A stretch of DNA of 64,000 nt, from the NCBI GenBank assembly GCA_963667725.2, contig CAXXHO010000003.1, positions 640,001 to 704,000 on the forward strand, in the 5' to 3' direction. The notes beneath the pieces were generated by a model that did no database searches, was not told the DNA's origin, and saw only the letters and a list, made by a program, of their open reading frames with translations. Made by a program: the position numbers and the translations under genes. Positions 9,816 through 41,788 of this stretch are shown piece after piece; the first letter of the stretch is position 1, and each line of letters opens with the position of its first letter. The DNA comes from Treponemataceae bacterium (GTDB taxonomy: Bacteria; Spirochaetota; Spirochaetia; Treponematales; Rectinemataceae).

Positions 9816-11102
9816 TTAAACGAAGCCGAGCAGTCTCGGTATGAAGAGCGAGATCTCGGGTATGTAGGCGACAATGAACAAGGCCAGCACCTCCATGATG
9901 ATGAAGGGTAAAATTGCCTTGGACAAGCGGGCCAGGCTGATTTTGGATATGGAACAGGCCACGAAGAGGCAGGCTCCAACGGGCGGCGTCATGAGGGCGA
10001 TGTTGAGCGACAGCACCATGATGATGCCGAAGTGTATGGGCGCAATGCCCATGCTTACGGCGATGGGATGAAGTATGGGGCCGAGAATGATGAGGGCGGC
10101 GGCTATGTCCATGAACATGCCGACGATAAGCATCAATATGATGATCATAAGGAGAATCAGTTTAGGATTCCCCGTGGTGGCGATGAGGAAGGCCGCTATC
10201 GCCTGGGGCACCTGATTGATGGCCAATACCCAGCTGAGAATCGACGCGGCGCCTATGATGAGGAATACCGAGCCTGTAATCTTGGCCGTCTTCAGGAGCA
10301 TCGGAAGGAGATCCCTGAAGGTGATGGATTTCAGGACGAAGAATCCGATCACGAGGGCATAGAGGACGGCGATCGAGGCAGCCTCCGTCGGCGTGAAGAG
10401 GCCTGAGAGTATGCCCCCGAGGATGATGATGGGCATAAGGAGGGGTATGATCGCATCCTTGGTGGCGAAGAGTTTCTGCCTGAAGGTCGTCTTCGGACCC
10501 TTGGGATATCCGCGTTTGTAGGACAGGTATGCCGACATGATCATGAGGAGGATGGCGAGGACGATGCCCGGCAGGAAGCCGGCGGCGAAAAGTCCCGCGA
10601 TCGATACGTTCATAAGCGAGCCGTAGATGACCATCATGTTGGAGGGTGGGATCGTGGGACCGATGATGGAAGAGGCCGCCGTGACCGCCGCAGAAAAATC
10701 GACATCGTAGCCGTCGTCGACCATCGCGGGAATCAGCATCGTGCCGATGGCCGCCGTATCCGACACGGCCGCTCCTGTCATCCCCGCGAAAAATACCGAG
10801 GCTATGATGTTGGCGTGGGCGAGTCCTCCCCTCCAGTGTCCGACGAGGACATTGGAGAAATTGACGAGGCGCTTCGTGATTCCGGCCTTGTTCATCAGCT
10901 CTCCGGCCAGGATGAAAAAGGGCATGGCCATGAGGGTGAACATGTCGAGGCCAGAAAAGTACTGGAGAGGCGCCATCGAGAGAAGCCCGACGCCCGAACC
11001 CATGAGAAGGAGCCCGACGACGCCCGCGATTCCGAGCGTGAAGCCGATGGGGATCCCTAGGACGAGGAGGGCAAAAAATACGACCGCGACCGATAGGAAC
11101 AT
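9816..11102 (-). CDS. dctM: TRAP transporter large permease DctM
   Basis: AMPFFILAGELM, IGPTIPPS, FTPTEA, TPPVG. Confidence 0.92.
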   Translation of the reverse strand: MFLSVAVVFFALLVLGIPIGFTLGIAGVVGLLLMGSGVGLLSMAPLQYFSGLDMFTLMAMPFFILAGELMNKAGITKRLVNFSNVLVGHWRGGLAHANIIASVFFAGMTGAAVSDTAAIGTMLIPAMVDDGYDVDFSAAVTAASSIIGPTIPPSNMMVIYGSLMNVSIAGLFAAGFLPGIVLAILLMIMSAYLSYKRGYPKGPKTTFRQKLFATKDAIIPLLMPIIILGGILSGLFTPTEAASIAVLYALVIGFFVLKSITFRDLLPMLLKTAKITGSVFLIIGAASILSWVLAINQVPQAIAAFLIATTGNPKLILLMIIILMLIVGMFMDIAAALIILGPILHPIAVSMGIAPIHFGIIMVLSLNIALMTPPVGACLFVACSISKISLARLSKAILPFIIMEVLALFIVAYIPEISLFIPRLLGFV

Positions 11103-11113
11103 CTCTTCCCTCC

Positions 11114-11650
11114 TCAGATGTCGATGTAGCCGGCGGCCTGGATGCGCCTGCCGTCGGGGCTCTGGAGAACCATGATGGAAACGAAGATGATCTGCAGAGC
11201 GGAAATCCCCATGGCTACGGGAACGGCCAGTCTGGGGATGAACATGGAAATGCCGAGAGCCTGTGTCATCTGCGTTCGGGCTTCGAGCGTGGCGCTAAGC
11301 GAGTAGAAGAACATGAACAGAAGAAAGGCTAGCACAAAGGCGTTTATAAGCAGCGCCATGGCCTTCCGGGCGTTCGTCTTCTTAAGCCCGTCGAGTATGA
11401 CCGTGAGCCCCACATGCTCCCCTGCGCTGATCCCCAGGCTTATAGCGAGGGATGCGCCCCAGATCATGAGGTACCGCGAGGTTTCTTCCACCCAATTCAA
11501 GGGGGCGTTGAGGACATAGCGAAAGAAAACTCCCAGGATGACGATGACTGTCATGGCGCCGAAAAGAAGGGCGCAGGCAAACCCAGTTCCCTTATCGATG
11601 GCGGCCGAGAGCGATTCGGCAGTCGTGAAGCCTGGCTTGCTTTCTGTCAT
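11114..11650 (-). CDS. dctQ: TRAP transporter small permease DctQ
   Basis: VFFRYV...WVEE.SRYLMIW, four TM segments; lies between dctP and dctM. Confidence 0.9.
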   Translation of the reverse strand: MTESKPGFTTAESLSAAIDKGTGFACALLFGAMTVIVILGVFFRYVLNAPLNWVEETSRYLMIWGASLAISLGISAGEHVGLTVILDGLKKTNARKAMALLINAFVLAFLLFMFFYSLSATLEARTQMTQALGISMFIPRLAVPVAMGISALQIIFVSIMVLQSPDGRRIQAAGYIDI

Positions 11651-11754
11651 GGTTTTCCTCCCGCGAGCGGCGCAGCCGCCGAAGGGAGGGGCAGCCGCGC
11701 GAAGGCGGCAACCCCTCCTGATTGGATCGGCATTAAGTATTTTTAGGCTATGGA

Positions 11755-12789
11755 TCAGTAGCCGAGTTCTTTCTCGGCCTTTTCGATGGCCGCGAAGAAT
11801 TTGTCGACGAGAGCCTCGCCCTCTTTCTTGTACTGGGCGCTCATGAATTCCCTGGCAGCGGGGATGGCGACGTCGCGGAACTGCTTCATTTCGGCCTTGG
11901 TGGGAACGTAGACCTGCATCTTCTCGGCGAGGGTGGGAAGTCCTTTGTCCGAACCGTCGATAATCCTCGAGAGACCGCGTCCGGCGAGGAGGGCGGTTCT
12001 GGCCGCGTCATCGATGACGTTCTGGAGGTCGGCGGAGAGCCCGGCATAGAATTTGGGATTGATTACCCAGATATAGGGGGCATAGAGATGGTTGGTGAGG
12101 GTGATGTATTTCTGGACTTCCTGGAACTTGGCCATGGTGATGATGGAGATGGGGTTCATCTGTCCGTCGACCACGCCGGTCTGGAGGCTGGTGTATACTT
12201 CTGCCCACGCCACGGTGGTGGGAGAAGCGCCCAACGCCTTGACGATGGCCTGGTGGAGGGGGAGGGCCATGGTGCGGAGTTTTATGCCCTTCATGTCGGC
12301 TGGCGATTTTATGGGGCGCTTGCCGTTGGTGATGGCGAAGAAGCCGCCGGATTCGCCGAATCCAAGCACCTTGAATCCCGCTTTCTTCTCGATGTCGGCC
12401 GCGAGTTCCTTACCGAAATCCCCGTCGTACACTTTATAGCCGACATTATAGCTCGAGAAGGCGAAAGGCATGTTGGTGACGTCGATGAGGGGATAGAACT
12501 GGGCCATGCCGCCTGAGGAAGAGATGAAGGACTGGACGACGCCGGCCTTCACCTGGACCATGGTCTCGGCTTCCTTGCCGAGAACGCCGTTCGGGAAGAT
12601 ATCGACCTTGATCTGACCGTTGGAATTGGCTTCTACTTCGCTCTTGAACACGGCCGCCATGGCCGCCGACGCGACGTCGAAGGGCTGCTGGGGGTTGAGA
12701 TGGGCGAGCTTGAGGACGGTCTGTCCGAATACCGCAGCGGGCATAAGCGCCGCGATGACGAGAACGATCGCTAGAATCCTGCTTTTCAT
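11755..12789 (-). CDS. dctP: TRAP transporter substrate-binding protein DctP
   Basis: Signal peptide, DMKGIKLRT, EVYTSLQTGVVDGQMNP; GGAGG RBS before ATG 12789. Confidence 0.9.
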   Translation of the reverse strand: MKSRILAIVLVIAALMPAAVFGQTVLKLAHLNPQQPFDVASAAMAAVFKSEVEANSNGQIKVDIFPNGVLGKEAETMVQVKAGVVQSFISSSGGMAQFYPLIDVTNMPFAFSSYNVGYKVYDGDFGKELAADIEKKAGFKVLGFGESGGFFAITNGKRPIKSPADMKGIKLRTMALPLHQAIVKALGASPTTVAWAEVYTSLQTGVVDGQMNPISIITMAKFQEVQKYITLTNHLYAPYIWVINPKFYAGLSADLQNVIDDAARTALLAGRGLSRIIDGSDKGLPTLAEKMQVYVPTKAEMKQFRDVAIPAAREFMSAQYKKEGEALVDKFFAAIEKAEKELGY

Positions 12790-12926: not shown

Positions 12927-15794
12927 CTATAAGCGGCCCAGAGCGTGAAGCACCCGCTCCGGCGAGAAGGGCCATTCCCTCACCCAGGCGCCGACGGCGT
13001 CGTGGATGGCGATCGATATCGCCGGGGCTGCGCCATTTACCGATATCTCCGAGACGCTCTTGGCGCCGAAAGGACCGATTTCATCCTCCACGGGCATGAG
13101 TTCGACGCGGAAATCAGGCGGCACCTCGGCGATGGTCGGTATCTTGTAGTCGAGGAAACGAGGATTGAGGCAGCGGCCTTCGCCGTCGTAGAGCATTTCC
13201 TCATAGAGCGAATGGCCTATGGCCTTGAGGATGGCTCCGTACACCTGCCCTGTCGCGAGGGCTGGGTTGATGGGGGTGCCGCAGTCCTGATAGGCGTGGT
13301 AGCGCTGGACCTTCAACTCGCCCGTGCGCTCGTTGACGGCGACCTGGACGAAATGCGCGCCGTAGGGAAAGGCCGAGTGGTCGGTCTTGAAGCTTCCGAA
13401 TCCCGATAGTTCGCCGTGGCCTTCGCCCTGGACGGAGCGGTGGCCGAGCTCGGCGAGGCTGATTTTGCCCTTCTTGCCGACTACCATGCCCTTGTATTCG
13501 ATATGGAGGTCTTCAGGGGCCTCTCCGAGGATGGGCGTGGCGGCTTCGAACACTCGCCGCCTCAGGTTCTCGGCGGCCTTAAGGGCAGCGTTGCCGGAGA
13601 AATAGGTGCCAGAGGAGGCGTAGGCGCCCTTGTCGAAGGGGGTGATGTCGGTGTCGCCGGAGACCACCGTGACGTCGGTCAGGTCGAGGCCGAGGATCTC
13701 GGCGGCGGCCTTGGCGGTGACGGTGTCGAGGCCCGTGCCGAGGTCGGCCCCGCCCGAGAGCATGAGGAGGGTGCCGTCGGAGAGAAGGCGCACTTCGGCG
13801 TTGGCGGCGTCGAGGCCGGGAAGGCCTGAGCCCTGCTGGATGATGACAGCCCCGCGGCCGATCTTCCAGTCAGATCCCGGGGCGGGCGGCTTGGGTTGGT
13901 CCCAGCCGAAGGCTTGGCGGCCGCGCGCCATCATGTCGCCCAGGCCGCATTTTCCCAGCGTGACGGCGGCGCCTTCACGGCCCTCGCCGAGGCTTTTCAG
14001 GATGTCGATGCGGCTGCCTGAACGCACGCGGTTCTTTTCGAGGAAATCGAGCTGGTCCATGCCGAGGGCGCAGGCCATCTCGGCGAGGGCCGTCTGCAGA
14101 GCGAAGGAACCTTTCGGGGCGCCATAGCCCTGGTAGGCTCCCGCCGGCGAGAGGTTCGTGTACCAGGATTTCACCTCGAAGCGCGCGTTGTCGCAGAGAA
14201 GGAGTGGCAGGCTCTTCGAGATCGCGTTCATGGGCACGGTGAGGCAGTGCTGGCCGTAGGGGCCGGTGTCGGCGTCGAGATTCATGAGGATGGCGGTGAG
14301 TTTGCCGTCGCGCCTGGCGCCCAGCTTCACCTTGATCTCCATGGCGTGACGTGTCCGGCTCGCGATGAATTCCTCTTCTCTTGTATAGCGGAAATAGACA
14401 GGCCGCCGCGTCGTCCAGGCGAGATAGCCCGCGATGTCCTCGACGACGATGTCCTGCTTGGCGCCGAAGCCGCCGCCGACCCTTTCCTTGATCACGCGCA
14501 CCTTATTCTCCGAGATGCCGACGGCCCGGGCGACGATGCGCCGCACATGCCAAGGCACCTGGGTCGAGGCGTGGAGGACGAGACGGCCCGCCTCGATCTT
14601 CGCGAAGACGACATGGGGCTCCATGGGCGTGCACTGCACCCTGTTGGTTTTATAGCTTCGTTCGATGACGATGTCGGCAGCGGCGAAACCCGCCTCCATG
14701 TCGCCAATGCCGCCCGAGGCCGAAGCCGCGAGGTTGCGGTGCGGGTCGGAGTGCAGGGGGAATTGGTAGACGACAGGATCGTCGCGGCCGTCGCCTCTCG
14801 TGTCCGTGCCTACAGGAGGCGAACCGGCGACATAGGATACTTCGCCCGAGTGGATGACGGGCGCTTCATTCGCCTTGGCCTGCGCTATCGAGAAGACGGG
14901 CGGAAGGACCTCGTAGGTCACCTTTATAGCCGCGAGGGCGGCCGCGGCGATTTCAGGCGTTTCGGCGAGAACGGCGGCGACTCTGTCGCCGACATGGCGC
15001 ATCTTGCGCGGGAACATGCGCTGATCGTAGGGGGAGGGTTCGGGGAAGCCCTGGCCAGCTGTGGTGTACACCCGCTCTGGTGTATTCTTGTGAGTGAGGA
15101 CGGCAACGACGCCGGGCATGGCTTCGGCTTCCGCCGTGTCGATGGAAGCGATCCAGGCATGGGCATAGGGGCTTCCGAGGACTTTCAGGACGCAGGCGTC
15201 GCCCGTGACCCTATCCTCGACGAAGGCGCGCTCGCCCCGGCTCAAGGTTTCGGCGTCAACCTTCTCGCGATCCTTGCCCACATGGCGGAGGTCAGGCCTG
15301 AATTCGGGTCCGAGGGGCGGCGCGTAGCCTGGTTCAGAGAGACGCCGGGCGGCGAGGCGCACGGCCTCGAAATACTGCTTATAGCCGGTGCAGCGGCAGA
15401 GGGTGCCCGAAAGGGCGTCGGCGACTTCCGCGTCGGAAGGCTCGGGCGATCGAGCGAGGAGCTCACGTATGGAGAGGGCGACGGCCGGCGTGCAGTATCC
15501 GCACTGGACGCAAGCGCAATCGATGAGGGCGCGCTGGATGGTCCGAAGGGTCGCGTCCTTGTTGTAGTAGTCGATGGTGACGACCTCGCGGCCATCGGCC
15601 TCGAGGGCGAGAATGAGGCAGGAATTGACGAGCTTGCCGTCGAGGAGAAGGGCGCAGAGGCCGCAGGAGCCTTCGCCGTCGCAGCCGTTCCTCAGCGAGA
15701 CGATTCCCGCGCGGCGCAGCAGGGTTTTAAGGCTTTCGCCGGGTTCGCAGGCAAGGGCGACGGGACGGCCGTTGAGCGTGAATGTCGTGGTCAT
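12927..15794 (-). CDS. xdhD: Molybdopterin oxidoreductase, fused 2Fe-2S + Mo-binding subunit (XdhD/YgfN type)
   Basis: GCDGEGSCGLC, QCGYCTP, CRCTGY, GQGFPEPSPYD, STQVPWH, GGGFGAKQ, AYQGYGAPKG, GAKSVSEI; 955 aa; downstream of ygfM. Confidence 0.88.
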   Translation of the reverse strand: MTTTFTLNGRPVALACEPGESLKTLLRRAGIVSLRNGCDGEGSCGLCALLLDGKLVNSCLILALEADGREVVTIDYYNKDATLRTIQRALIDCACVQCGYCTPAVALSIRELLARSPEPSDAEVADALSGTLCRCTGYKQYFEAVRLAARRLSEPGYAPPLGPEFRPDLRHVGKDREKVDAETLSRGERAFVEDRVTGDACVLKVLGSPYAHAWIASIDTAEAEAMPGVVAVLTHKNTPERVYTTAGQGFPEPSPYDQRMFPRKMRHVGDRVAAVLAETPEIAAAALAAIKVTYEVLPPVFSIAQAKANEAPVIHSGEVSYVAGSPPVGTDTRGDGRDDPVVYQFPLHSDPHRNLAASASGGIGDMEAGFAAADIVIERSYKTNRVQCTPMEPHVVFAKIEAGRLVLHASTQVPWHVRRIVARAVGISENKVRVIKERVGGGFGAKQDIVVEDIAGYLAWTTRRPVYFRYTREEEFIASRTRHAMEIKVKLGARRDGKLTAILMNLDADTGPYGQHCLTVPMNAISKSLPLLLCDNARFEVKSWYTNLSPAGAYQGYGAPKGSFALQTALAEMACALGMDQLDFLEKNRVRSGSRIDILKSLGEGREGAAVTLGKCGLGDMMARGRQAFGWDQPKPPAPGSDWKIGRGAVIIQQGSGLPGLDAANAEVRLLSDGTLLMLSGGADLGTGLDTVTAKAAAEILGLDLTDVTVVSGDTDITPFDKGAYASSGTYFSGNAALKAAENLRRRVFEAATPILGEAPEDLHIEYKGMVVGKKGKISLAELGHRSVQGEGHGELSGFGSFKTDHSAFPYGAHFVQVAVNERTGELKVQRYHAYQDCGTPINPALATGQVYGAILKAIGHSLYEEMLYDGEGRCLNPRFLDYKIPTIAEVPPDFRVELMPVEDEIGPFGAKSVSEISVNGAAPAISIAIHDAVGAWVREWPFSPERVLHALGRL

Positions 15795-16615
15795 AAGGAG
15801 GCCTCCAGCGAGAAAAGCACATCGGCGAGAAGGGCGGCCGCCCTGAGGCGCTTGAAAGCCGCGCTGCCCCTAACGTCGTCGACGGGAGCGAAGAGGGGAG
15901 CGGCGGCTGCTTCGATCACGGCCTTGTCCGCCAGCGGCCTGCCTTCGAAGAGGCTTTCCAGTTCGGGGAAGCGGCGCGCGTGGGGCGAAAGTCCGCCCAT
16001 GGCGATTCGCAGGCCGCGCAGGGCTGGCCTTCCGTGGCTTGCGCCACTCCCGTCACTCAGTTCGGCCGAGACCGCGCAGGTGAGAACGGCCACGTCGCAG
16101 GAGGTGCGGGAGTAGCGTCCGACGGCGAAGCGGCGCGACGCGGGCAGCTCGAATTCGATGCCGGCGATCAGTCCTTTTTCGGCAGGGGAGGCAGTCTGCC
16201 ATTCCGCCGCCGTTAGGGCAGGGGCCTGGGCGCGGCTGTAGCGCGCTTCGGCCACGAGGAGGAAGGGCAGGAGGCTGGAGCAGGATTTGTCGGCGCCTAT
16301 GTTGCCGCCTATCGTCGCTCTGTTGCGGATATTCCTGTCGGCCATGCTGAGGGCCGCCTCGCGCAGCGCGGCTGGAAGCAAGGCGGAATCGGCGATGGCC
16401 TGGAAGGTCGCGCCTGCGCCTATGATAATCCTGTCGCCATGACGCTCGATTCCCTTCGGGAGGAGGTCAGTGATCGCGATCGCGGTCATAGGGCGCCAGG
16501 CGAATTGGGATGTCAGGAGCCAGGTGCCGCCAGCCAGGAGGACGGCGCCATCTTCGTTCGAGAGGAGTTCGAGCGCTTCCCCGGCGGTTTTCGGCCTGAA
16601 ATATGCTTTTACCAT
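15791..16615 (-). CDS. ygfM: FAD-binding subunit of molybdenum hydroxylase (YgfM type)
   Basis: YFRPKT, LAGGT, IRNRATIGGN, DDVRGSAAFK; ATG 16615 after GAGGA; overlaps the xdhD start. Confidence 0.8.
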   Translation of the reverse strand: MVKAYFRPKTAGEALELLSNEDGAVLLAGGTWLLTSQFAWRPMTAIAITDLLPKGIERHGDRIIIGAGATFQAIADSALLPAALREAALSMADRNIRNRATIGGNIGADKSCSSLLPFLLVAEARYSRAQAPALTAAEWQTASPAEKGLIAGIEFELPASRRFAVGRYSRTSCDVAVLTCAVSAELSDGSGASHGRPALRGLRIAMGGLSPHARRFPELESLFEGRPLADKAVIEAAAAPLFAPVDDVRGSAAFKRLRAAALLADVLFSLEASL

Positions 16616-16699: not shown

Positions 16700-18058
16700 T
16701 TACAGAATGCCCGCGGACGTATAGAGCCGGCGGGCCGCTTTTTCGGCATTGACGCGGATCAGTTCCTCGTCGACGCCGCGGAGCTTCCTTGAGCGCACCA
16801 CGAAACGGCCATTCACGATGAGGTGATCGACGCCGTGGTTATAGCCCGAGAAGAGAAGCGCGGCGACAGGGTCCGACAGGGCGCCAACGTATTCGAGCTT
16901 CATGACGTCGAAGAGGGCGAGGTCGGCCAGGGCGCCCTCGCGGATGACCCCAGCCTCTTCGTAGCCGAGGAGGCTGGCGCCGCCCTTTGTGGCGATGTTC
17001 AGCACTTCCTGGGCCGTGATGCCAGCCGAGCCGTAGCGGATGCGCTGCAGCAGTAGGGCTTGGCGCGCCTCGCCCAGCATGTCGGAGGAGTCATTCGAGG
17101 CCGAGCCGTCGACGGCGAGGCCGACGGGTATGCCACGGTCTATCATTTCGCGAACCCGGCAGATGCCCGAGCCCAGCCTCATGTTCGAGGAGGGGCAGTG
17201 GGCGACGCCTGTTTTCGTTTTCGCGAGGAGGTCGAGTTCCTCGTCGTTGAAGAAGATGCCGTGGGCGAACCAGACATCGGGGCCGACGAAGCCGCAGTCC
17301 TCCATGAGCCTGAGGGGCCGCCTGCCGTACATCCGTATGCAGTAGGCTTCCTCGTCGCTCGTCTCGGCGAGATGGGTGTGGAGGCGAGCGCCGAACTTGC
17401 GTGCAAGTTCGGCGCTGCGGCGCATCAAGTCTTCGGATACGGAAAAGGGCGAGCAGGGGGCGAGGGCTACCTTCCGCATCGAATCGGGGGCAGGGTCGTG
17501 GAAGCGCTTTATCGTCGCTTCGCAATGGGCGAGGATCTCATCCTCGTCCTGGACCGTGGAATCGGGAGGCAGTCCGCCATCCTTCTTCGAACGGCTCATC
17601 GAGCCCCTTGTCGGCGCGAAACGCAGGCCTAGGTCCGCCGCCGCCTTGAACTGCAGCGCCGGGATGTCGTCGCCGAAACCTTCCGGGTAGAGGTAATGGT
17701 GGTCGGTGGTGAGGGTGCAGCCCGTCTTGGCAAGCTCGGCCATCGCGAGCATCGAGGACCAATACACGGCTTCGGGATCGAGATGCTTCCAGATTTCATA
17801 GAGATAGAGAAGCCAGTCGAAGAGCTTCGCGTTCTGCACGGCGGGCAGGTTGCGCGTCAGCGTCTGGTAGAAATGGTGATGCGTGTTGACGAGACCCGGA
17901 AGGACGACATGGCGCGACGCGTCTATAATATCGGCTCCCGCGGGAGCGACGATGTTCGTTCCTATTCGCGTTATGCGATTTTTATCGACGAGGATATCGA
18001 CGCCCGATAGTTCGGCGTCGGCAGCGAGCACCCTGAAGCAGTTCCGGAGGAGTATCAC
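16700..18058 (-). CDS. 8-oxoguanine deaminase-like amidohydrolase
   Basis: NTHHHFYQTLTR, LAPCSPFSVS (PCS motif), HLAE, HCPSSNMRLGSG (SSN motif), DGSASND; GTG start overlaps the upstream stop. Confidence 0.8.
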   Translation of the reverse strand: MILLRNCFRVLAADAELSGVDILVDKNRITRIGTNIVAPAGADIIDASRHVVLPGLVNTHHHFYQTLTRNLPAVQNAKLFDWLLYLYEIWKHLDPEAVYWSSMLAMAELAKTGCTLTTDHHYLYPEGFGDDIPALQFKAAADLGLRFAPTRGSMSRSKKDGGLPPDSTVQDEDEILAHCEATIKRFHDPAPDSMRKVALAPCSPFSVSEDLMRRSAELARKFGARLHTHLAETSDEEAYCIRMYGRRPLRLMEDCGFVGPDVWFAHGIFFNDEELDLLAKTKTGVAHCPSSNMRLGSGICRVREMIDRGIPVGLAVDGSASNDSSDMLGEARQALLLQRIRYGSAGITAQEVLNIATKGGASLLGYEEAGVIREGALADLALFDVMKLEYVGALSDPVAALLFSGYNHGVDHLIVNGRFVVRSRKLRGVDEELIRVNAEKAARRLYTSAGIL

Positions 18059-19512
18059 CGCATAACCTCCGCGTTGAACTCGTCGATGAGATCGTCCAAC
18101 GCTTCAACCTGGGCGTGGAGGCCGCCCCAGTAGTTGCGATGGTCATCCCACTGGGCCCTGAGCTCGGCCAGATCCTTGCCCTGCTGCTCGATCCAGGTGA
18201 AGTACTTGAGATTGTGGATACGGCGCTTGTCCACCTGCGTGAGTTCGAAGACATGGTCCACGGAAATTCCGGCGAGCCTGTCCTGGTCCTTGTCGGACTG
18301 GCGCTGGCCGTAGGGACCGCGCTCCGCGTTGAGCTCGTCGAGCCTGGACTGGTACATGGTCATGGAGTCGGTGAACATGGTGAAGACGACGTCGTGCTCG
18401 TCCATTTCGTAGTATTTCGCCATCTTGATCGCGCCGATGAGGTTGCCGACGCCCGAGATGCCGAGGAGGCCCAGCTGGGCCACGGCCTCGGGATCGGCTC
18501 CCGCGGCGACGAGGGCATCCCGGCCCGCCTTCTCGTTGAAGAGGCGGATGAAGCGGATGGGCAGCTCGTCGTCGACGCCGATGGCGGCGTCGGTGTCACG
18601 CATATTGTGGATCCAGGGGATGTGCTTGTCGCCGATGCCCTCGATGCGATGATCGCCGTATCCGTTTTCGAGGATTGTGGGACATTGGAGAGCTTCAGCC
18701 ACGGCGATCTTGATGTCGGGGAAATGGTCGCGTAGGTAGGAGCCAGATCCGAGGGTGCCGGCCGAGCCCGAGGAGAGGAGAGTCCCAGCTACCCGGTCTC
18801 CAGGCTTGCCCACCTTCGCGAAGACTTCGGCCATAGCCGGCCCCGTGACCTGGTAGTGCCAGAGATTGTTGGGCAGCTGGTCGAACTGGTTGAAGATGAC
18901 GGCGTCGGGGCGCGTAGCTTCCAGCTCGATGCACTTGTCGAAGATTTCCTTGACGTTGGATTCGCAGCCCGGGGTGGCGATCACTTCCTCGGCCATGGTC
19001 TTCAGCCATTCGAAGCGCTCGCGGCTCATGCCAGCGGGAAGGATGGCGATCGAGGGGCAGGAGAGTAGGCGGGAGATATAGGCGCCGCCCCTGCAGTAGT
19101 TGCCGGTCGAAGGCCAAACGGCTTTCTTGGTGGTCGGGTCGAATCGGCCGGTGACAAGTTCGGGCACGAGGCAGGCATAGGCCGCGCCGACCTTGTGCGC
19201 TCCCGTGGGGAACCATTTTCCGACGAGGCCGATGATGCGGGCCTTCGTGCCCGTGATGGCGCGAGGAATCTCGAGAAAATTGACGCCGCCGAAGCCGCCG
19301 CCCTTTTCGACGGGCTCGTTATGCCAGTTGACGCGGAAAAGGTTGCGCGGATGGACGTCCCAGAGACCGATGCCAGATAGCTCTTTCTTCACCGAGGCGG
19401 GAATCTTGGCCGGATCCCTCATCTGGGCGTAGGTGGGAAGGAGAATGCCTTTTTCCCTGCATCGCTGGATATTTTTCTTTCTTTGGATTTCGTTGACGTT
19501 AAGATCGATCAT
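18055..19512 (-). CDS. PLP-dependent fold-type II enzyme of unknown substrate (485 aa)
   Basis: FPTGAHKVG (PLP lysine), STGNY, NQF, SGSAGTLG phosphate loop, HRIEGIG; AAGGAG RBS. Confidence 0.8.
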   Translation of the reverse strand: MIDLNVNEIQRKKNIQRCREKGILLPTYAQMRDPAKIPASVKKELSGIGLWDVHPRNLFRVNWHNEPVEKGGGFGGVNFLEIPRAITGTKARIIGLVGKWFPTGAHKVGAAYACLVPELVTGRFDPTTKKAVWPSTGNYCRGGAYISRLLSCPSIAILPAGMSRERFEWLKTMAEEVIATPGCESNVKEIFDKCIELEATRPDAVIFNQFDQLPNNLWHYQVTGPAMAEVFAKVGKPGDRVAGTLLSSGSAGTLGSGSYLRDHFPDIKIAVAEALQCPTILENGYGDHRIEGIGDKHIPWIHNMRDTDAAIGVDDELPIRFIRLFNEKAGRDALVAAGADPEAVAQLGLLGISGVGNLIGAIKMAKYYEMDEHDVVFTMFTDSMTMYQSRLDELNAERGPYGQRQSDKDQDRLAGISVDHVFELTQVDKRRIHNLKYFTWIEQQGKDLAELRAQWDDHRNYWGGLHAQVEALDDLIDEFNAEVMR

Positions 19513-19731
19513 CGGCGGCTCCTTTGAAACGCATGATGGAAAACCGCAAGCGGTGAGAACTGCCCGCGGCTCGAATAGTATACGACGCATTCCGGAAATT
19601 TTACAGGGCAATTTCCTCGCTGTTGGAGCTGTGCCTTCCTAAGGTTCGACAGATACTTCCGAACCGTCGATATCGAAGTGGTAGCTTCTATACCCTGAGT
19701 TCTTTCTGGTCATGAGCATGGCTGGTGGCTA

Positions 19732-19760
19732 TTTACATATATATTGGCAAATGCTAATAT
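19732..19760 (+). promoter_or_regulatory. Promoter with palindromic operator (island site A)
   Basis: TTTACA-N17-TAATAT overlapping ATATTG-GCAAATGC-TAATAT (19741-19760). Confidence 0.6.
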
Positions 19761-19786
19761 CAATACAATTATTAAGAGGCTCTACA

Positions 19787-20224
19787 ATGGGAATTGAACA
19801 AGATAAGAACGACAACAATCAGACTACCTTTAGCGGCCCGATTCTCTATTATACGGATAGGGTAATCGATCATTTTACGCATCCACGTAATATCGGCGAA
19901 AAATCCGATGAGAAGGCTGATGGCTATGCCCAGATCGGTGATCCCGGATGCGGTGATCAGATGAAGCTATGGTTTTCCGTATCTGAAGGAAGAATCTGTC
20001 AAATCGCTTTCAAATCCTATGGCTGTCCCGGAGCCATTGCCACGAGCAGCATGCTGACCGTTCTCGCGCAAGGGAAGACAATCGAGGAGGCCATGAATAT
20101 CACCGATGATGATGTCGTGAACGCGCTTGGAGGGATCCCCGAAAACAAGAAGCACTGTTCTCTCCTCGGCGTCCAGGCGCTTCAGGCGGCTATTGCGCGT
20201 TACAAAAGTCGTCTGCAAATCTAA
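19787..20224 (+). CDS. IscU/NifU_N-like Fe-S cluster scaffold
   Basis: DHFTHPRNIG, GDPGCGD, FKSYGC, HCSLL: three conserved Cys. Confidence 0.88.
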   Translation: MGIEQDKNDNNQTTFSGPILYYTDRVIDHFTHPRNIGEKSDEKADGYAQIGDPGCGDQMKLWFSVSEGRICQIAFKSYGCPGAIATSSMLTVLAQGKTIEEAMNITDDDVVNALGGIPENKKHCSLLGVQALQAAIARYKSRLQI

Positions 20225-20237
20225 TGGAAGAACCTGC

Positions 20238-20738
20238 TTATAATCGCAGGAAATCAACTGCCGACCAATCGATCTTGCCTTCGGCATCGACCAGGTTCGC
20301 GTCGGCATGGACATATTCGACTTTTCCTACGAACATTTCATGCGAGCCTGTGCATAGCGAGTCGACAACTGTACACTCAATTGATACCGGGCTGTCGAGG
20401 AGAACCGGCGCGTTGACCTTAATGCCATCTCCCAGCGGTATCCCAAGTTTTTCTAGCTTGTTCTCGTCGCGACCGCTGTGGGATCCAAGGTATTGGAATG
20501 TCCCCTTCATCGACGCGGAGACGAGATTCACCACGAAGACGCCTGTTTTTTTGATTATTGAGTAAGAATGGCGCGAAGGAACGATGCCCACCATCACCAT
20601 GGGCGGATCATAGCTGCAGTTGCAGCAGTAGACGACGGCGAGCGCGTTGTTCCTGCCGTCCGAATCCCGGCACGATACGAGAATGGGAGTCTTAGGATTG
20701 AGGACTGAACGGAACGCGGCTGGTTTTTTTTCTTTCAT
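20238..20738 (-). CDS. Flavin reductase-like (flavoredoxin) protein
   Basis: PPMVMVGI.PSRHSY..IKKTG.FVVN, GSHSGRD, IEC.V, GSHEMFVGKV. Confidence 0.85.
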   Translation of the reverse strand: MKEKKPAAFRSVLNPKTPILVSCRDSDGRNNALAVVYCCNCSYDPPMVMVGIVPSRHSYSIIKKTGVFVVNLVSASMKGTFQYLGSHSGRDENKLEKLGIPLGDGIKVNAPVLLDSPVSIECTVVDSLCTGSHEMFVGKVEYVHADANLVDAEGKIDWSAVDFLRL

Positions 20739-20774
20739 GACCAAGGCTCCTTTATGCGTCATCGATGATGCGGT

Positions 20775-21767
20775 TTACGAAGCGCGCCAAGATATTTTTC
20801 CATTATGAACAATTTCGATAATTTTGCCAGAGTCTCTGAGATTTTGGAGAACAGAGTCCAGATTGGTGACACCTCTATGGGCAAGAAGGTTTCGCAGCTC
20901 TCCATCGGTCATAGGATGACGCCGGAGTATGCATGCCGCTGCAAGGAGCGGATCGTTCTCTCCTTCCGCCGAAAAACCGCCATAGCCTTTGGATGGGTGG
21001 AGGACGGTCGCGCTGCTTCCCAGTATCTTCTGAGCCCGCGCGATTCCTTCCTCGTCGCTGGGGCGAACCCAGGGCTCCGCGGGCGGGCGTGTCGGCAAGA
21101 CAAGATGGATCTCATCGGGACCAATCCGCTTGATTACTTCCGACAGATTTTCAAGGGAAGCCTCATCATCGTTGATTCCGGCGATCAGCATAACTTCGAG
21201 CCATAATCTTCCCGTGAACTCGCTTCCGAACGCGACGAGTCCCTCGACATGTCGTTCGAAATCGAAATCAGGGAGAGGGCGGTTAATCCGCCGAAAGAGC
21301 GCTGCGCTTCCAGCGTCCAATGTCGGCAGCACAGCGTCCGCCGCGGAAAGATCTTCCCGTACCTCACTCAGGCTCAACAGGGAGCCATTCGTGATGACGG
21401 CGACAGGCAGCGAGGTCATAACCTTGACCACCCTGATCATCGTTCCAATATCGCGGTTGAGCGAAGGCTCGCCTGATCCGACGAAGGTTATCCAATCGAT
21501 GTCTTCTGCCGATTCCGAGTGTAAAGCTGCTCGCAATTCCTCATACATCATCTCTGGAGGAAAGTACGAGGAACGCGATTTCGTATAAGGCCTTGTCCGG
21601 CCCAGCTGACAATAGACGCAGTTCCAGTTGCAGAATTTGAGAATGGAAAGGTCGGAGCCACCGTAGATCCCTTGAGGGGGAGATGATGCTTCTTTCCTGG
21701 ATATCGGATCTATGCCAAGTGACCGACCAAGGCGACGAGAAGGGACGGGACCAAAAATGCAATGCAA
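20775..21767 (-). CDS. Radical SAM protein of unknown function
   Basis: FGPVPSRRLGRSLGID, CNWNCVYC, GSGEP, ITNGSLL; TTG start. Confidence 0.88.
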   Translation of the reverse strand: MHCIFGPVPSRRLGRSLGIDPISRKEASSPPQGIYGGSDLSILKFCNWNCVYCQLGRTRPYTKSRSSYFPPEMMYEELRAALHSESAEDIDWITFVGSGEPSLNRDIGTMIRVVKVMTSLPVAVITNGSLLSLSEVREDLSAADAVLPTLDAGSAALFRRINRPLPDFDFERHVEGLVAFGSEFTGRLWLEVMLIAGINDDEASLENLSEVIKRIGPDEIHLVLPTRPPAEPWVRPSDEEGIARAQKILGSSATVLHPSKGYGGFSAEGENDPLLAAACILRRHPMTDGELRNLLAHRGVTNLDSVLQNLRDSGKIIEIVHNGKISWRAS

Positions 21768-21779
21768 GTCCTGGCCTGT

Positions 21780-21995
21780 TTACGCTTGCTTTACTTCATC
21801 GCCATCAGAATTTTTACTGTCTTTCGATGATGGCGCTGCAGCGCTTTTATTCCCATGACCGTGACCAAGTCCATTTTTGGCACCGTGTCTTTGTCCACGA
21901 ACAAGAGCTTTCACGGGATCGCCAGCACAAGGTCCCAGCCCCTTGCCTGTTTTCTTTCCAGCACCAGCGGGACCACTCCCGTCAGAATTGGGCAT
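21780..21995 (-). CDS. Small DUF5320-like Gly-rich protein
   Basis: MPNSDGSGPAGAGKKTGKGLGPC; GGAGG RBS; paralogous to 25230-25613. Confidence 0.7.
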   Translation of the reverse strand: MPNSDGSGPAGAGKKTGKGLGPCAGDPVKALVRGQRHGAKNGLGHGHGNKSAAAPSSKDSKNSDGDEVKQA

Positions 21996-22069
21996 ATATA
22001 CCTCCGAGCGGCTAAAGATACTGAGCGCGTCAACGACGCACATCACACATGTTCGGCATCACCTAATAC

Positions 22070-22098
22070 AAAATAAGCATATGCTAATAATAAATCAA
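22070..22098 (-). promoter_or_regulatory. Promoter with palindromic operator (island site B)
   Basis: Minus strand TTGATT-N17-TATTTT with GCATATGC (22077-22084) in the spacer. Confidence 0.6.
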
Positions 22099-22155
22099 TG
22101 ATTCTCATCATTTCTCAGGGCAACAATTGATATGCTATGTATATGAAAACGAAAA

Positions 22156-22494
22156 TTAGTGCGTACAGAGATTTTTACCGGTGACAAGCGTGTTTTCAAG
22201 GAAGAGCTTTACGATTTTTTCCGCTGTCTCCCCCGGTGCCCCCGCAATGACTTCGATATTGTTCTGTACGAAGAGATTGATGGCGTTTTCGCCCATGCCT
22301 CCAGCAATGACATGAGTGATGCCAAGTTTTGCGAGCCAAGAGGGGTAGAGTCCCGGTTCGTGGGGAGGCGCGACGATCTCTTCTTGTGAGAGAATAGCCC
22401 TGGTGGCTGAGTCGACGGTGATAATTGCGAAGCGTTCACAATGGCCGAAATGAGGCGTAAGATTTCCATTTAGAAGAGGAATTGCTATCTTCAT
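22156..22494 (-). CDS. NifB/NifX-family (FeMo-cofactor binding/ORP-like) protein
   Basis: MKIAIP, HFGHC..F, PPHEPG, AGGMG, C-terminal NLCTH; AAGGAG RBS. Confidence 0.87.
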   Translation of the reverse strand: MKIAIPLLNGNLTPHFGHCERFAIITVDSATRAILSQEEIVAPPHEPGLYPSWLAKLGITHVIAGGMGENAINLFVQNNIEVIAGAPGETAEKIVKLFLENTLVTGKNLCTH

Positions 22495-22504
22495 AGTGTC
22501 TCCT

Positions 22505-23089
22505 TTATAAAGCATAGGTAGAGAAGCGTACGATTGCGGCAGATAGTCCTGACGCCATACATACATCACTTCTCCCGTGGATAAGGCCTCCGCCCACCAT
22601 GACCGCTTTCTTTATCTTTCCCTCATCCCGGACTGAACGTAGGAAGTCAGCGTCCTTCATGGATTGGAGCGTTGTTATACCCTTGAGTCCGATCCCGGGC
22701 ACCGGAGGCATCTTTGCGATCGCGCCGGTGGCGAGTATGAGCTTGTCATAGCCAATCGTTGTGGTTTCTTCGGTTAGGAGGTTTTTATAGGTTACCGTAT
22801 GACTATGGGGGTCGATGCTCGTCGCTTCGCTGTTCGTTCGGGCGTCGATTGCCTTGGCGTTGAGATAGAATTTCGGATTCCTGACGACGCCCGCCGGCGT
22901 GCAGAGAAGCTGATCCCTGTCGTCGAAAGCGCCTCCAACGTAATATGGATAGCCACATGACGCCATCGAAAGATCAGCCCCTTTCTGAAGGACAATGATG
23001 TCGGCGCTTTCGTCCAGTCGCCTCGCCTTGGCCGCGGCCTTGGGGCCGGCCGCCGATCCGCCGATGACCACGATTTGTTTCTTGCTCAT
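22505..23089 (-). pseudogene. Truncated CoA-disulfide reductase/NADH oxidase-family flavoprotein
   Basis: IGGSAAG, SCGYPYY, LILATGA are present, but homology stops at VMVGGGLI (NAD-binding motif) after about 170 aa; the family is normally over 440 aa. Confidence 0.75.
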
Positions 23090-23108
23090 TGTGTTCTCCC
23101 GCATGATT

Positions 23109-23423
23109 TTATTTCGAGGGGACGATGACATCCGCCATCGCCTCTCCAAGAGCTTTTCCCGCTTCCGTGATCTCGACGCGAATGCCCGCGGCGCTTAAAG
23201 CCGCCGCCGCCTTGGGGCCTACCTCGGGCGCGATGAGAATGCCGACTCCTTTCTCTGTGAGGAAAGCCGCGGCGCCCGTGCCGGCGCCATGTTCGGCGTT
23301 GACGCCCTCGTTCGCGGCGATCACGTAGCTCGAGTCAGCGTCATTGTAAAGCGCGAAACTTTTCGCTCGGCCGAAGACCTTCCCGACGGTCTTCCCGTCG
23401 TCTGTCGGTAATGCGTATTTCAT
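23109..23423 (-). CDS. NifB/NifX-family (Orange protein-like) protein
   Basis: FGRAK.F, HGAGTGAA, VGPKA...L.AAGI. Confidence 0.82.
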   Translation of the reverse strand: MKYALPTDDGKTVGKVFGRAKSFALYNDADSSYVIAANEGVNAEHGAGTGAAAFLTEKGVGILIAPEVGPKAAAALSAAGIRVEITEAGKALGEAMADVIVPSK

Positions 23424-24352
23424 AATGTCTCCTTTGGGATTACGACATTCAGCTTTTTGCGTTGCATGGATAAAACAACTCCCTTGACAGCTTCGATTGT
23501 AGCTTTGACCTGATCGCCCGCCTCTCCTCCAATCGAAAGCCAGGTGTTCCCCGACTCCTCGGCAGCCCTCAGCGCCGGATCGAAGGGTAATTCGCCTGCG
23601 AGAGGGATGCCGGCTTCCGCGAGCATGATCCGGGCTTTGGAGTCCATATCGGCGCTGAGGCCAGTCTTGTTCATGATGGCGATGGCTTTTCTCTTCATGG
23701 AATGAACGAGGGCGACGAGCCGCCGCGCGTCCTTGATACCCGATACGCTGGCTTCCACCACGATGATGACGAGGTTAGCGCCGCTCAACGAGGCGATGAC
23801 GGGGCAGCCAATTCCGGGCGCGGAATCGACTACAATGACACTGGCCTCGCCGGCTAATTGCTCGGCGCGATCACGGACAACCCGGACGAGCTTGCCGCTC
23901 GTGTCCTCTCCCGGCTCAAGTTCGGCGAACACCAGGGTCGGTCCCCGCGCCGTGTCCGCTACATAGAACTCACCGGCTTGTTTTTCGTACATGGTGACGG
24001 CGCCTTTGGGGCAGGTGTCCAGACAAGCGCCGCAGCGCTCACAGAGTTGGGGCACTATGACATAGGATTGCCTATCGGCGGATTTTCGGATCGCGTCGAA
24101 GCGGCACGCCTGGACGCAACGCCCACAGGCAGTGCAGGCATTGGCTTTGATTGAGAACCCAGGTCCCGCAAAGTAGGGGAATCGTTCCCTTTCCTTCGCA
24201 TCCAGGGCGATCGCTCCATTGGCGGCATCCACGTCGCAGTCGGCAAAGATGCACTTTTCCCCCGGTATAGCCGCGATAGCCACGGCGAGCGCGGCCGCGA
24301 TCGAGGTCTTGCCGGCTCCGCCCTTTCCACTCGCCACACTCACCGTCGTCAT
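23420..24352 (-). CDS. MinD-superfamily P-loop ATPase with inserted 2x[4Fe-4S] ferredoxin (COG1149 type)
   Basis: SGKGGAGKT, DCDVDA, CTACGRCVQAC, CERCGACLDTCP, SGKLV, DSAPGIGCPV; ATGA overlap at 24349-24352. Confidence 0.88.
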   Translation of the reverse strand: MTTVSVASGKGGAGKTSIAAALAVAIAAIPGEKCIFADCDVDAANGAIALDAKERERFPYFAGPGFSIKANACTACGRCVQACRFDAIRKSADRQSYVIVPQLCERCGACLDTCPKGAVTMYEKQAGEFYVADTARGPTLVFAELEPGEDTSGKLVRVVRDRAEQLAGEASVIVVDSAPGIGCPVIASLSGANLVIIVVEASVSGIKDARRLVALVHSMKRKAIAIMNKTGLSADMDSKARIMLAEAGIPLAGELPFDPALRAAEESGNTWLSIGGEAGDQVKATIEAVKGVVLSMQRKKLNVVIPKETL

Positions 24353-25233
24353 GCTGGTGCCGTCCATGAAACACCATCCAGCACAGTGGCGACGATCTTG
24401 TCCATTTCGTTCATGAAGGAGGCGTCGTTGCTCCAGAGCGCGGCTGACGCCCCCGACTCCGCGCGCGAACGCAGAAAGGCGATTCGCCCGATCACGGGAA
24501 CGGATTTTTCGGCGCAGAACCCCGCGATATCGACGCTTCCGAAGCCATCCTTGTTTATGACGACCCCGGTTGGTATGTCGCGGCTTTTCGTCAGCTTTAT
24601 CGCAGCGCCGAGATCATGGAGGGAAAACTCGGTAGGTTCAGCGACGAGAATCACATAATCGGCGCCCTCGATCGAATGCGTAGCCGGACAGGAGACTCCA
24701 GGCGGGCAATCTCGTACCTGGATCGCCGCGTCGCATACGGGCGCTCGACGTTTTGCCGCCTCGATGACGGCCGTGGATCGTATGTCGCCTACCTCCATTC
24801 GCCCTTCGAGAATGTGGAGTCCTTCTGTCATAAAAAAGGAAGTGCGGCCGACGGTCGCTTTTATTTCACCCAGCGCCGACGCGGGACAAACCGAGACACA
24901 GCGTCCACAGCCTTTGCACAGTTCTCCGCTTATTGAAACTACGCCGCCTAGGACTACAATCGCCCCGAACCGACAGGACTTGGCGCAAAGTCCGCAGCCC
25001 GTACATCGCTCCGAGAGAAGAGAAGGAATGGGGACCTTAACCGGTTCAGCCTCTCCGAGAAGCTTGGCGGCCTGAAAATAGCCGATGACGTCAGGCGCCT
25101 CGACGTCGAGGTCGACGAGCAGCGTCTTGCGGGAGCGGGCGAACGCGAGGGCAAGGTGGGCAGCTACTGTTGTCTTGCCGGTGCCGCCCTTGCCACTCGC
25201 AATGGCAATCACCGTCGCCTGCGGTTTGCTCAC
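24349..25233 (-). CDS. MinD-superfamily P-loop ATPase with inserted 2x[4Fe-4S] ferredoxin (COG1149 type)
   Basis: SGKGGTGKTT, DLDVEAP, CTGCGLCAKSC, CKGCGRCVSVCP, DCPPGVSCP, EPTEFSLHDL. Confidence 0.88.
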   Translation of the reverse strand: MSKPQATVIAIASGKGGTGKTTVAAHLALAFARSRKTLLVDLDVEAPDVIGYFQAAKLLGEAEPVKVPIPSLLSERCTGCGLCAKSCRFGAIVVLGGVVSISGELCKGCGRCVSVCPASALGEIKATVGRTSFFMTEGLHILEGRMEVGDIRSTAVIEAAKRRAPVCDAAIQVRDCPPGVSCPATHSIEGADYVILVAEPTEFSLHDLGAAIKLTKSRDIPTGVVINKDGFGSVDIAGFCAEKSVPVIGRIAFLRSRAESGASAALWSNDASFMNEMDKIVATVLDGVSWTAPA

Positions 25234-25613
25234 ATTTCCGCTTCTTTGTTTGTCTGAGCGGCTTCGCTTACGGGTTTGCCACCGAGGAGAGCCTCGGTTC
25301 TGCCTAGTTCGGCTAGGAGAAAAGCCCTCTTCTGTTCAAGGATATGGTTCATATCCGCGCCAGCAGTTATTCCGTCGTAGCCGACGGAAAACCAACCGGC
25401 TCCCCTGCCTAGACCGTGTCCATAGCCGGCCTTACAACCGCAGCCAGGACCGTTGCCGCGCCCCATGCCGCGTCTTGGGCCGTTGCCCATACCATTGCCG
25501 ATGCCACGCACATTGCGTGATCCCATCATAGCGGCGCCGCCGCCACAAAAACCAAGTCCTCTCCCTGTCATCGGTCCAGCTCCTTCGGGTCCTCTTCCAT
25601 TGTAATTAGGCAT
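25230..25613 (-). CDS. DUF5320-family protein
   Basis: MPNYNGRGPEGAGPMTGRGLGFC, Gly/Arg-rich middle, C-terminal coiled-coil-like LEQKRAFLLAEL; GGAGG RBS. Confidence 0.8.
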   Translation of the reverse strand: MPNYNGRGPEGAGPMTGRGLGFCGGGAAMMGSRNVRGIGNGMGNGPRRGMGRGNGPGCGCKAGYGHGLGRGAGWFSVGYDGITAGADMNHILEQKRAFLLAELGRTEALLGGKPVSEAAQTNKEAEM

Positions 25614-25697
25614 ATCAGCCTCCATATTGAAAAATTTAAATAGCGCCAACGGCGCATGCTTGTCATAAATAGCCAATGCTAATTACCTTATATGACG

Positions 25698-25726
25698 ATA
25701 ATAGGCATATGCTCATAATATGTCAA
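25698..25726 (-). promoter_or_regulatory. Promoter with palindromic operator (island site C)
   Basis: Minus strand TTGACA-N17-TATTAT with GCATATGC (25705-25712) in the spacer. Confidence 0.7.
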
Positions 25727-25794
25727 GTCCTTTTTGCTTTTTCTTGTGAGGCGGCGGAGGCCTTATACCCTAGTATGCGGAAAGAAATGATGAA

Positions 25795-26241
25795 TCAATC
25801 GTAGGCTGCTCGAGTCTTTTCATCGACTATAGTGGGCGCGAGGCGTGATTTCCACTCCGAAGCCCTCCATGTTCCAAGGCGTTCGTGGATAGTGAGATAT
25901 TTGGCGGGAATGGGGTGGGTACCGATAATGACTTTCAGCTTATAACGCTCTTCCATGAAATGAACAAAATGATCGATGCTGGGGCAGGGCGGGTACCCCA
26001 CGAGCAACCCCGTGGCGAGGTGAATAACAGAGATGCCGTTCTTCGCCATTTCCTCTCCGGCATATTCGATATTCCCTCCAGGGCAGCCCCCGCAGCTCGT
26101 ATAGCCGGCGATTTCCACATTCATGTCTTTATAGATGGAGAAAGCGCCTTCCCTGTTCTTAAATGCTCGGAAGCATTTCCCTCCCGCACAGTTTTTATAG
26201 CGATCACAGATGATGATGCCGATTTTCAATGTGTCTTCCAT
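25795..26241 (-). CDS. CGGC-domain protein
   Basis: CDRYKNCAGGKC, CGGCPG, IHLATG, PPCP, GTH. Confidence 0.88.
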   Translation of the reverse strand: MEDTLKIGIIICDRYKNCAGGKCFRAFKNREGAFSIYKDMNVEIAGYTSCGGCPGGNIEYAGEEMAKNGISVIHLATGLLVGYPPCPSIDHFVHFMEERYKLKVIIGTHPIPAKYLTIHERLGTWRASEWKSRLAPTIVDEKTRAAYD

Positions 26242-26314
26242 GTTTTTCTCCTGTTGTCGAAATTAGGGTATGCTCACCGTAGATAATTGTCAAATGCTTG
26301 AAATATATGAAGAT

Positions 26315-26358
26315 TTGACAAAGAAAAAGGTATATTATATATTAGCATATGACTATAA
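26315..26358 (+). promoter_or_regulatory. Peroxiredoxin promoter with operator (island site D)
   Basis: TTGACA (26315)-N17-TATATT overlapping ATATTA-GCATATGA-CTATAA (26339-26358); back-to-back TTGACA on the minus strand (26293-26288) faces the CGGC gene. Confidence 0.62.
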
Positions 26359-26449
26359 TATTTCTTCAATAAACGCTGTTTTAGGTGTAAAGCAGGATGG
26401 TTCTTCCTATCAGCAATCTAAATATTTTGCCATAAAAGGAGTTTATAGT

Positions 26450-27178: not shown

Positions 27179-27261
27179 AGAGATCGTCACCCTAGGCTGT
27201 TGATTGTGCATCGGGATTGACGCAACCTAGGTGTTTTATTCATGACAAAAGCTCTATCTGC

Positions 27262-27306
27262 TTGACTAATTTGTCAATTATCTTCATTATGAGCTTATGA
27301 CAATAA
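27262..27306 (+). promoter_or_regulatory. Promoter/operator (island site E) overlapping the MBL start codon
   Basis: TTGACT-N17-CATTAT ends 6 nt before ATG 27297; TTATGA-GCTTATGA-CAATAA (27287-27306) resembles site C. Confidence 0.5.
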
Positions 27307-28115: not shown

Positions 28116-28129
28116 CAAGGAGTAATTAT

Positions 28130-28948: not shown

Positions 28949-28957
28949 GAGGCTCTA

Positions 28958-41763: not shown

Positions 41764-41788
41764 CGTTACTATCTATTCCTTGTCCGCT

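Follow-up and report, generated by a model that had tools for sequence, protein, structure and literature searches.

We analyzed a window of 64,000 nucleotides from a Treponemataceae bacterium (assembly GCA_963667725.2, contig CAXXHO010000003.1, positions 640,001 to 704,000 of the forward strand) and found that it carries the known 2,8-dioxopurine (reductive urate) pathway together with a probable, previously undescribed end module formed by two pyridoxal phosphate (PLP) enzymes, a 485-aa protein (hereafter PLP485) and a ThrC-like protein. The best explanation of the data is that PLP485 is dedicated to a variant end of this pathway, and it probably acts on the terminal C3 intermediates. By analogy with characterized enzymes, PLP485 could be a beta-replacement enzyme that converts diaminopropionate (or albizziin) and water to L-serine, which would then be deaminated by the ThrC-like partner or by SdaA; we assign this reading a probability of roughly 45%.

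All five markers of 2,8-dioxopurine clusters (XdhD, YgfK, SsnA, YgeY and YgeW) scored above their curated cut-offs in the window, and dpaL (ygeX) was not found in the source genome (97% complete), which encodes carbamate kinase and, grouped together elsewhere, selD, yqeB and an xdhC-like gene. Among 221 PLP485 loci of at least 10 kb, which are not independent, 148 held a core urate gene (ssnA, ygeY, ygeW, ygfK or xdhD), which confirms an association with ygeW/ygeY/xdhD loci, whose absence would, according to the initial annotation of this DNA, have refuted its reading; 157 held a ThrC-like gene and 4 held dpaL. In a phylum sample of 251 genomes, tallied by hand, PLP485 was present in 23 genomes, 22 of which carried ssnA. 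ThrC-like orthologues were found in 23 of the 24 genomes with ssnA but not dpaL (PLP485 in 19, plus one contig-end fragment), as compared to 1 of the 27 genomes with both genes (PLP485 in 3). As the ThrC-like partner thus tracks the ssnA+/dpaL- genomes, it appears to be the partner, and not PLP485, that is the tighter complement of DpaL. Among 50 carrier genomes, picked from 80 loci for longer contigs and taxon spread, the partner (E <= 1e-59) was detected in 46, with a divergent adjacent copy in two archaea, ssnA in 42, an SdaA-family gene in 30 and selD in 37 (including all five betaproteobacteria). A further carrier sample (131 of 271) included spirochaetes already counted; loci were taken from it, but no prevalence was derived. 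Because PLP485 also sits with dpaL (L090, L128, L180, whose locus lacks the partner, and L292), it seems to have a job of its own. DpaL copies clustered with PLP485 keep the equivalents of Asp120 and Asp189; the idea that they are L-only and need PLP485 was rejected, as TDGNHG is kept in 21/21 DpaL sequences, including the clustered ones, and the DT motif in 14/14 aligned.

A match was present in 17 relatives, and 11 related genomes were fetched. In 7/11, the ThrC-like gene lies no more than 350 nt upstream of PLP485 within a single ygfK-ssnA-ygeY-thrC-like-PLP485-deaminase operon, which points to the ThrC-like enzyme as the natural partner of PLP485; one genome has a 1-kb gap, one has another arrangement, and two from the same genus have DUF134 and Mrp genes alone between the pair. 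In the source window the two genes are 10 kb apart on the same strand, and an insert of about 10 kb secondarily split the ancestral operon. The initial annotation had noted two distinct PLP enzymes in the locus, the one besides PLP485 being this ThrC-like protein (30861-29701), and had placed PLP485 at the head of the xdhD-ygfM unit; that order holds in the window, but PLP485 heads the unit only because of the split. The partner itself lacks the Arg of the NPxR motif, which binds phosphate in threonine synthases, and falls outside threonine synthase by this residue and the TIGR00260 cut-off. An obligate complex of the two enzymes was rejected, as they show no special co-divergence and their genes are often apart.

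Translation of the window gave an intact, stop-free open reading frame (ORF) for PLP485 (18055-19512, minus strand), and the initial description of a 485-aa fold-type II protein with the motifs TGAHKVG (K107), STGNY (135-139) and HRIEGIG (288-294) was accurate, as was that of an overlap with the deaminase gene (the PLP485 stop and the deaminase GTG start share GTGA, 18058-18055). Pfam reported PALP alone (residues 102-344, 63 bits against a cut-off of 35), and PLP485 belongs to PF00291 fold-type II enzymes in that K107 takes the place of the Schiff-base lysine of CysK/CBS in alignments, the STGN substrate loop and the Gly-rich GS[AG]GT phosphate loop are conserved, and the structural model matches. 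The best sequence and structure matches were CysK/CysM and cystathionine beta-synthase (CBS), with 20-26% identity and target TM-scores of about 0.8. However, PLP485 reads GAHK around the lysine, where these enzymes have SVK, and scores 55-81 bits against hidden Markov model (HMM) cut-offs of 344-510 (cysteine synthase, 80.6/350.95 for TIGR01139 and 79.2/344.15 for TIGR01136; CBS, 55.5/510 for TIGR01137), and CBS regulatory domains were absent in Pfam. As the scores are far below the cut-offs and the genome encodes a separate, true CysK, an ordinary cysteine synthase was rejected, in agreement with the initial annotation. PLP485 gave no match at E <= 1e-10 to the DpaL/YgeX family HMM, and its STGNY aligns with DpaL TDGNH such that Thr replaces the catalytic Asp120. 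There was also no match at E <= 1e-10 to the diaminopropionate-precursor synthases SbnA/CmnB (TIGR03945), which are biosynthetic and use phosphoserine and glutamate. In fold comparisons the PLP485 model resembled beta-replacement enzymes more than racemases, its neighbours including the phosphoserine users SbnA, CmnB and CysM; the fold matches hardly extended over the C-terminal ~75 residues.

PLP485 is single-copy in the source genome. Its nearest relatives are from spirochaete metagenome-assembled genomes (MAGs), and the best 80 genome loci, which come from several phyla and from archaea, are 55-84% identical to it. The family is tight and large, with all 8000 scored candidates reaching E <= 1e-20, and ranges over spirochaetes, Chloroflexota, clostridia-like gut MAGs, betaproteobacteria and archaea; clustering at 50% brought out only a few divergent relatives of full length, and an ESM Atlas search returned the family's own clusters only. 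Among 228 full-length copies, HKVG, WPSTGN[YF]CRGG, ES-NV-E, EGIGDKH-PW and KY-TW-EQ are essentially invariant, and Asp295 is invariant in 228/228; Cys140 and the basic residues R141, K296, H297, R390 and K436 are likewise invariant. Four full-length relatives (P0122, P0150, P0151 and P0153) lack the STGN loop and Asp295, one of them also the PLP lysine, and are probable pseudo-enzyme paralogues judging from these losses. Another homologue (P0123, 562 aa) has an acidic, low-complexity N-terminus and looks eukaryotic.

Fn1055, a cysteine (hydroxyl) lyase of Fusobacterium nucleatum (PDB 5b53, 5b55), converts cysteine and water to serine and releases H2S. PLP485 shares with it a CysK-type fold, an aligned QF motif and the PT(L/I)...HRIEGI-x-D motif, in which Asp232 of Fn1055 corresponds to Asp295 of PLP485. 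On the other hand, the two do not qualify as orthologues, being only about 23% identical and of different length (485 as compared to 336 aa). PLP485 also has conserved extensions at both termini, invariant YCR/FCR, ESNVKE and D-K-H motifs and a purine-catabolic context. In the proposed reaction, Lys107 of PLP485 would bind 2,3-diaminopropionate (or albizziin) as an aldimine, and loss of the beta group (as NH3 or urea) would leave enzyme-bound aminoacrylate, to which Asp295, by analogy with Fn1055, would add water, with release of L-serine. The ThrC-like partner, without a phosphate-binding Arg, would deaminate serine, and perhaps diaminopropionate too, to pyruvate (SdaA in some lineages), and the pair would replace YgeX/DpaL via serine, which could be diverted to biosynthesis.

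Five betaproteobacterial genomes without a detected ssnA (0/5) carry PLP485 and the ThrC-like gene together with an L-carbamoylase and a nitrilase-family carbamoylase, which we take to be a D-carbamoylase (no family match over the cut-off). Four of the five add RpiR, a tripartite ATP-independent periplasmic (TRAP) transporter and, directly downstream, sdaA, the sole SdaA copy in these genomes. In these incomplete MAGs yqeB was found in 0/5 and a xanthine dehydrogenase (XDH)-family gene in 3/5, with no Mo enzyme in the locus. The combination of carbamoylases and sdaA without a Mo enzyme argues for ureido-C3 acids as substrates, rather than for a role in Mo cofactor supply, and for serine as the product. 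L278 has another, unrelated sdaA after ygeW, and serA is located near PLP485 in 6 loci (head-to-head in five related loci, after ygeW in L320). SdaA as an obligate sink was rejected, as it is found in 30/50 carriers only and its family includes relatives of other function.

The same module bears on the earlier suggestion that PLP485 mobilizes sulfur or selenium for the Mo cofactor. In that case it would, like Fn1055, split cysteine (or selenocysteine), and the H2S (or H2Se) would supply the terminal Mo-cofactor ligand of XdhD/XDH. This improbable alternative would account for the Fn1055-type Asp, with serine likewise a product, and is compatible with the frequency of selD among carriers and with xdhC/mocA within 400 nt of PLP485 in 13/301 loci and XDH subunits in 23/301. 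The suggestion is, however, weakened by the betaproteobacterial module, by the selD-yqeB-xdhC group elsewhere in the source genome, by the 13/50 carriers in which selD was not found, and by one spirochaete family with 23 ssnA+ genomes and 0/36 PLP485 carriers; in its favour, Fn1055 as the nearest mechanistic analogue does release H2S.

Several observations weigh against formation of serine by PLP485. CysK-family enzymes are L-specific, which, by analogy, may not suit a pathway with (R) intermediates. Of the 27 ssnA+/dpaL+ spirochaete genomes, 23 come from one family and 3 of the remaining 4 carry PLP485; a dpaL match in 10/50 carriers (over the cut-off in 9/50) also indicates that exclusion is incomplete. 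Serine-gene neighbours within 400 nt occur in only 9/301 loci from 3-4 lineages, and the serA neighbours are divergently oriented or lie on the other strand. An SdaA-family gene was absent from 20/50 carriers and from the source genome (no match for SdaA alpha), so that the serine route there depends on the putative activity of the ThrC-like partner. The invariant Tyr179 and Asn199-Thr200 of the partner align with the YDD and DT motifs of DpaL, by which it could act directly as a lyase on diaminopropionate, and the rho for co-divergence of PLP485 and partner was 0.26 (124 loci), or 0.48 as compared to 0.72 for ssnA-ygeY (45 shared loci). Given an identity of only ~23%, the Asp shared with Fn1055 could mean thiol handling; one review describes Asp232 as the cysteine-specificity residue.

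Stereochemistry leaves room for a further alternative. According to the available text of two reports, (R) intermediates are proposed for the 2,8-dioxopurine pathway (10.1101/2025.04.24.650524; PMC12990295), the latter listing pathway stereochemistry as an open question. If the pathway delivers the (R)/D isomer, either PLP485 or the ThrC-like enzyme must take the alpha-proton from the re face, and Thr136 or invariant Cys140 would be candidate bases in PLP485. The (R) configuration would also fit a racemase that converts D- to L-diaminopropionate, albizziin or serine and feeds an L-specific ThrC-like lyase, which we consider unlikely. The near-obligate pairing and the Thr at the DpaL Asp120-equivalent position of the partner would agree with a racemase, as would Thr136, which by motif lies at what we take to be the loop position of Ser84 in serine racemase. 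Ser84 is the re-face base of that enzyme, but S84T of human serine racemase is described, in the text available, for elimination only (PMC4000059, PMC3344862, PMC6424897). A precedent exists in the racemase CuyB with the stereospecific lyase CuyA, but CuyB is PLP-independent (PMC11193023, available text). Moreover, the fold is nearer to beta-replacement enzymes, Asp295 would be left unexplained, and the PLP485-clustered DpaL copies, with TDGNHG and DT motifs kept, need no racemase. In a bolder and doubtful form of the serine-forming reading, PLP485 would hydrolytically deaminate D-2,3-diaminopropionate to L-serine with inversion of configuration and, with its partner, would provide a second widespread purine exit into serine, one-carbon or 3-phosphoglycerate metabolism (boldest via O-phosphoserine).

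That last route, in which phosphate is the nucleophile and diaminopropionate yields O-phosphoserine, leading back through SerC/SerA to 3-phosphoglycerate with one extra ATP, is very improbable. The phosphoserine-using fold neighbours, the invariant basic residues and serA beside PLP485 in 6 loci would fit, but serC was not seen in the recurrent neighbour clusters of PLP485 loci (no family-directed search for it was made) and the sdaA coupling suits free serine. We also regard as unlikely a beta-eliminating lyase that forms pyruvate directly from D-diaminopropionate or albizziin (with release of urea), in parallel to the partner. Carbamoyltransferases adjoin PLP485 in 53/301 loci, PLP485 co-diverges best with YgeW (rho = 0.72, 57 loci), and SdaA is missing from many carriers, all in line with such a lyase; however, urea elimination is unneeded where YgeY or a second carbamoyltransferase occurs, which is usually the case, the sdaA coupling would be unexplained, and CysK-like closed-site motifs are kept. 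Where the initial annotation proposed that the two PLP enzymes handle different stereoisomers or substrates, or eliminate urea, a terminal C3 role is likely, but the D/L and urea ideas are not favoured by the fold, Asp295 and the intact clustered DpaL copies.

The published pathway ends, in the available text, with conversion of diureidopropionate to a mono-ureido acid, diaminopropionate and pyruvate (10.1101/2025.05.19.654654; 10.1101/2025.04.24.650524; PMC12990295). The fold-type II enzyme YgeX/DpaL catalyzes the last step, and the PLP pair would occupy the same position in clusters usually without dpaL. Compared to the reductive urate cluster of E. coli and C. sporogenes (Li et al. 2025; Liu et al. 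2025), the source genome shares xdhD, ygfK, ssnA, ygeY, ygeW and a ygfM-like gene, with selD and yqeB, but its locus lacks ygeX, has an AllB-like hydantoinase (the presumed substitute) for HyuA, and adds a deaminase, a TRAP transporter and the two-PLP module. Downstream of PLP485 follow the 8-oxoguanine deaminase family gene, ygfM-like, xdhD, TRAP dctPQM and ygeW (Table 1).

Table 1. Coordinates of features of the locus in the window
Feature	Position	Strand	Remarks
YgeW carbamoyltransferase	8594..9793	-	HMM over cut-off
TRAP transporter dctPQM	9816..12789	-	insertion that separates xdhD from ygeW
XdhD Mo/FeS subunit, urate reductase type	12927..15794	-	TIGR03313 1182.8 bits, cut-off 1101.9
YgfM-like FAD subunit	15791..16615	-	TIGR03312 best match, 113 bits, below cut-off 241.5
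8-oxoguanine deaminase family amidohydrolase	16700..18058	-	NF006055 603.7 bits, cut-off 532
PLP485, CysK/CBS-fold PLP enzyme	18055..19512	-	~75-aa N-terminal and ~95-aa C-terminal extensions
PLP485 Asp295 codon	18630-18628	-	
PLP485 Lys107 codon	19194-19192	-	
Ribosome-binding site AAGGAG	19519..19524	-	6 nt 5' of PLP485 ATG
Insert without counterpart in two same-genus genomes	19614..28129		~8.5 kb
Mrp/NBP35 ATPase and DUF134-NifB/X gene	28082..29632	+	older, genus-level insertion, opposite strand
Perfect 16-bp hairpin with A/T tails	29647..29683		after ThrC-like gene
ThrC-like PLP partner	29701..30861	-	386 aa; ATGA overlap with ygeY
YgeY ureido-hydrolase	30858..32066	-	HMM over cut-off
SsnA	32069..33415	-	HMM over cut-off
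YgfK	33412..36555	-	HMM over cut-off
Allantoinase/hydantoinase-like amidohydrolase	36540..37910	-	335.8/357.85 (AllB), 212/393 (dihydropyrimidinase)
Operon 5' part: XDH pair, adenine deaminase, BMP-type ABC transporter	37904..48461	-	

The GC content of 19513-29700 is 53.6%, as compared to 62-63% in the flanks. The younger insert encodes NifU-like, flavin reductase, radical SAM and NifB/X-like proteins, two 4Fe-4S P-loop ATPases, a peroxiredoxin and a metallo-beta-lactamase fold protein. This Fe-S/redox island (19614-29632) entered the purine operon in two steps, and transposases or end repeats were not noticed; a CoA-disulfide-reductase-like ORF (22505-23149) appears truncated. An AT-rich near-palindrome with the core GCATATGC occurs five times between genes of the insert (19742-19768, 22072-22098, 25700-25726, 26285-26311 and 26340-26366), probably as the operator of one regulator. 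The hairpin after the ThrC-like gene appears, from its sequence, bidirectional-terminator-like, and a promoter scan of 19450-19900 found no minus-strand site. Positions 26-7039 hold a fructoselysine-type sugar-amine operon (deglycase-like, ABC transporter, FrlD kinase, GntR).

Variants of the locus were also observed elsewhere. Eight loci (L102, L103, L104, L106, L022, L025, L026 and L076) combine aspartate (ATC)- and ornithine carbamoyltransferase (OTC)-like enzymes with carbamate kinase, without ygeY in the locus; here both ureido groups may be phosphorolysed, doubling the ATP yield. A Rhodoferax contig (G252 C44; L002, L114) has dpaL, hydantoinase and ygeW ~15 kb from ygfK-ssnA-yqeC-ThrC-like-PLP485, i.e., both endings in one cluster. 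In Chloroflexota (L014, L019, L061, L063, L067, L074 and L075), a PatB-type C-S lyase lies a few genes from PLP485, which may be lineage synteny. One TRAP subfamily (DctP/DctM 53-95% identical) adjoins the PLP pair in separate lineages (the window transporter, L276, L285, L005 and L008-L010) and is a candidate for the uptake of diureidopropionate or albizziin, which hints at cross-feeding. In Bilophila wadsworthia, an unstudied PF00291 protein of 52 kDa (E5Y7Z0) and a gene annotated as ThrC beside a transporter, which may correspond to the pair, appear in the available text of PMC11193023.

No publication on the PLP485 family or the proposed serine reaction was found in a search that left subscription journals and preprint supplements (SsnA neighbourhood tables) outside its scope. 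In the available text of the reports that solved the anaerobic urate pathway in 2025, YgeX is the only known last enzyme (10.1101/2025.05.19.654654; 10.1101/2025.04.24.650524; PMC12990295), and one of them scored PF00291 neighbours as 'YgeX' (10.1101/2025.05.19.654654), by which the PLP485/ThrC-like pair would be hidden. Once confirmed, the function would lead to the revision of many annotations as 'cysteine synthase' or 'threonine synthase'. If the proposed role is true, anaerobic purine breakdown would have a second way to end, and the stand-alone version with TRAP transporter and carbamoylases would let betaproteobacteria feed on ureido intermediates from other urate degraders.

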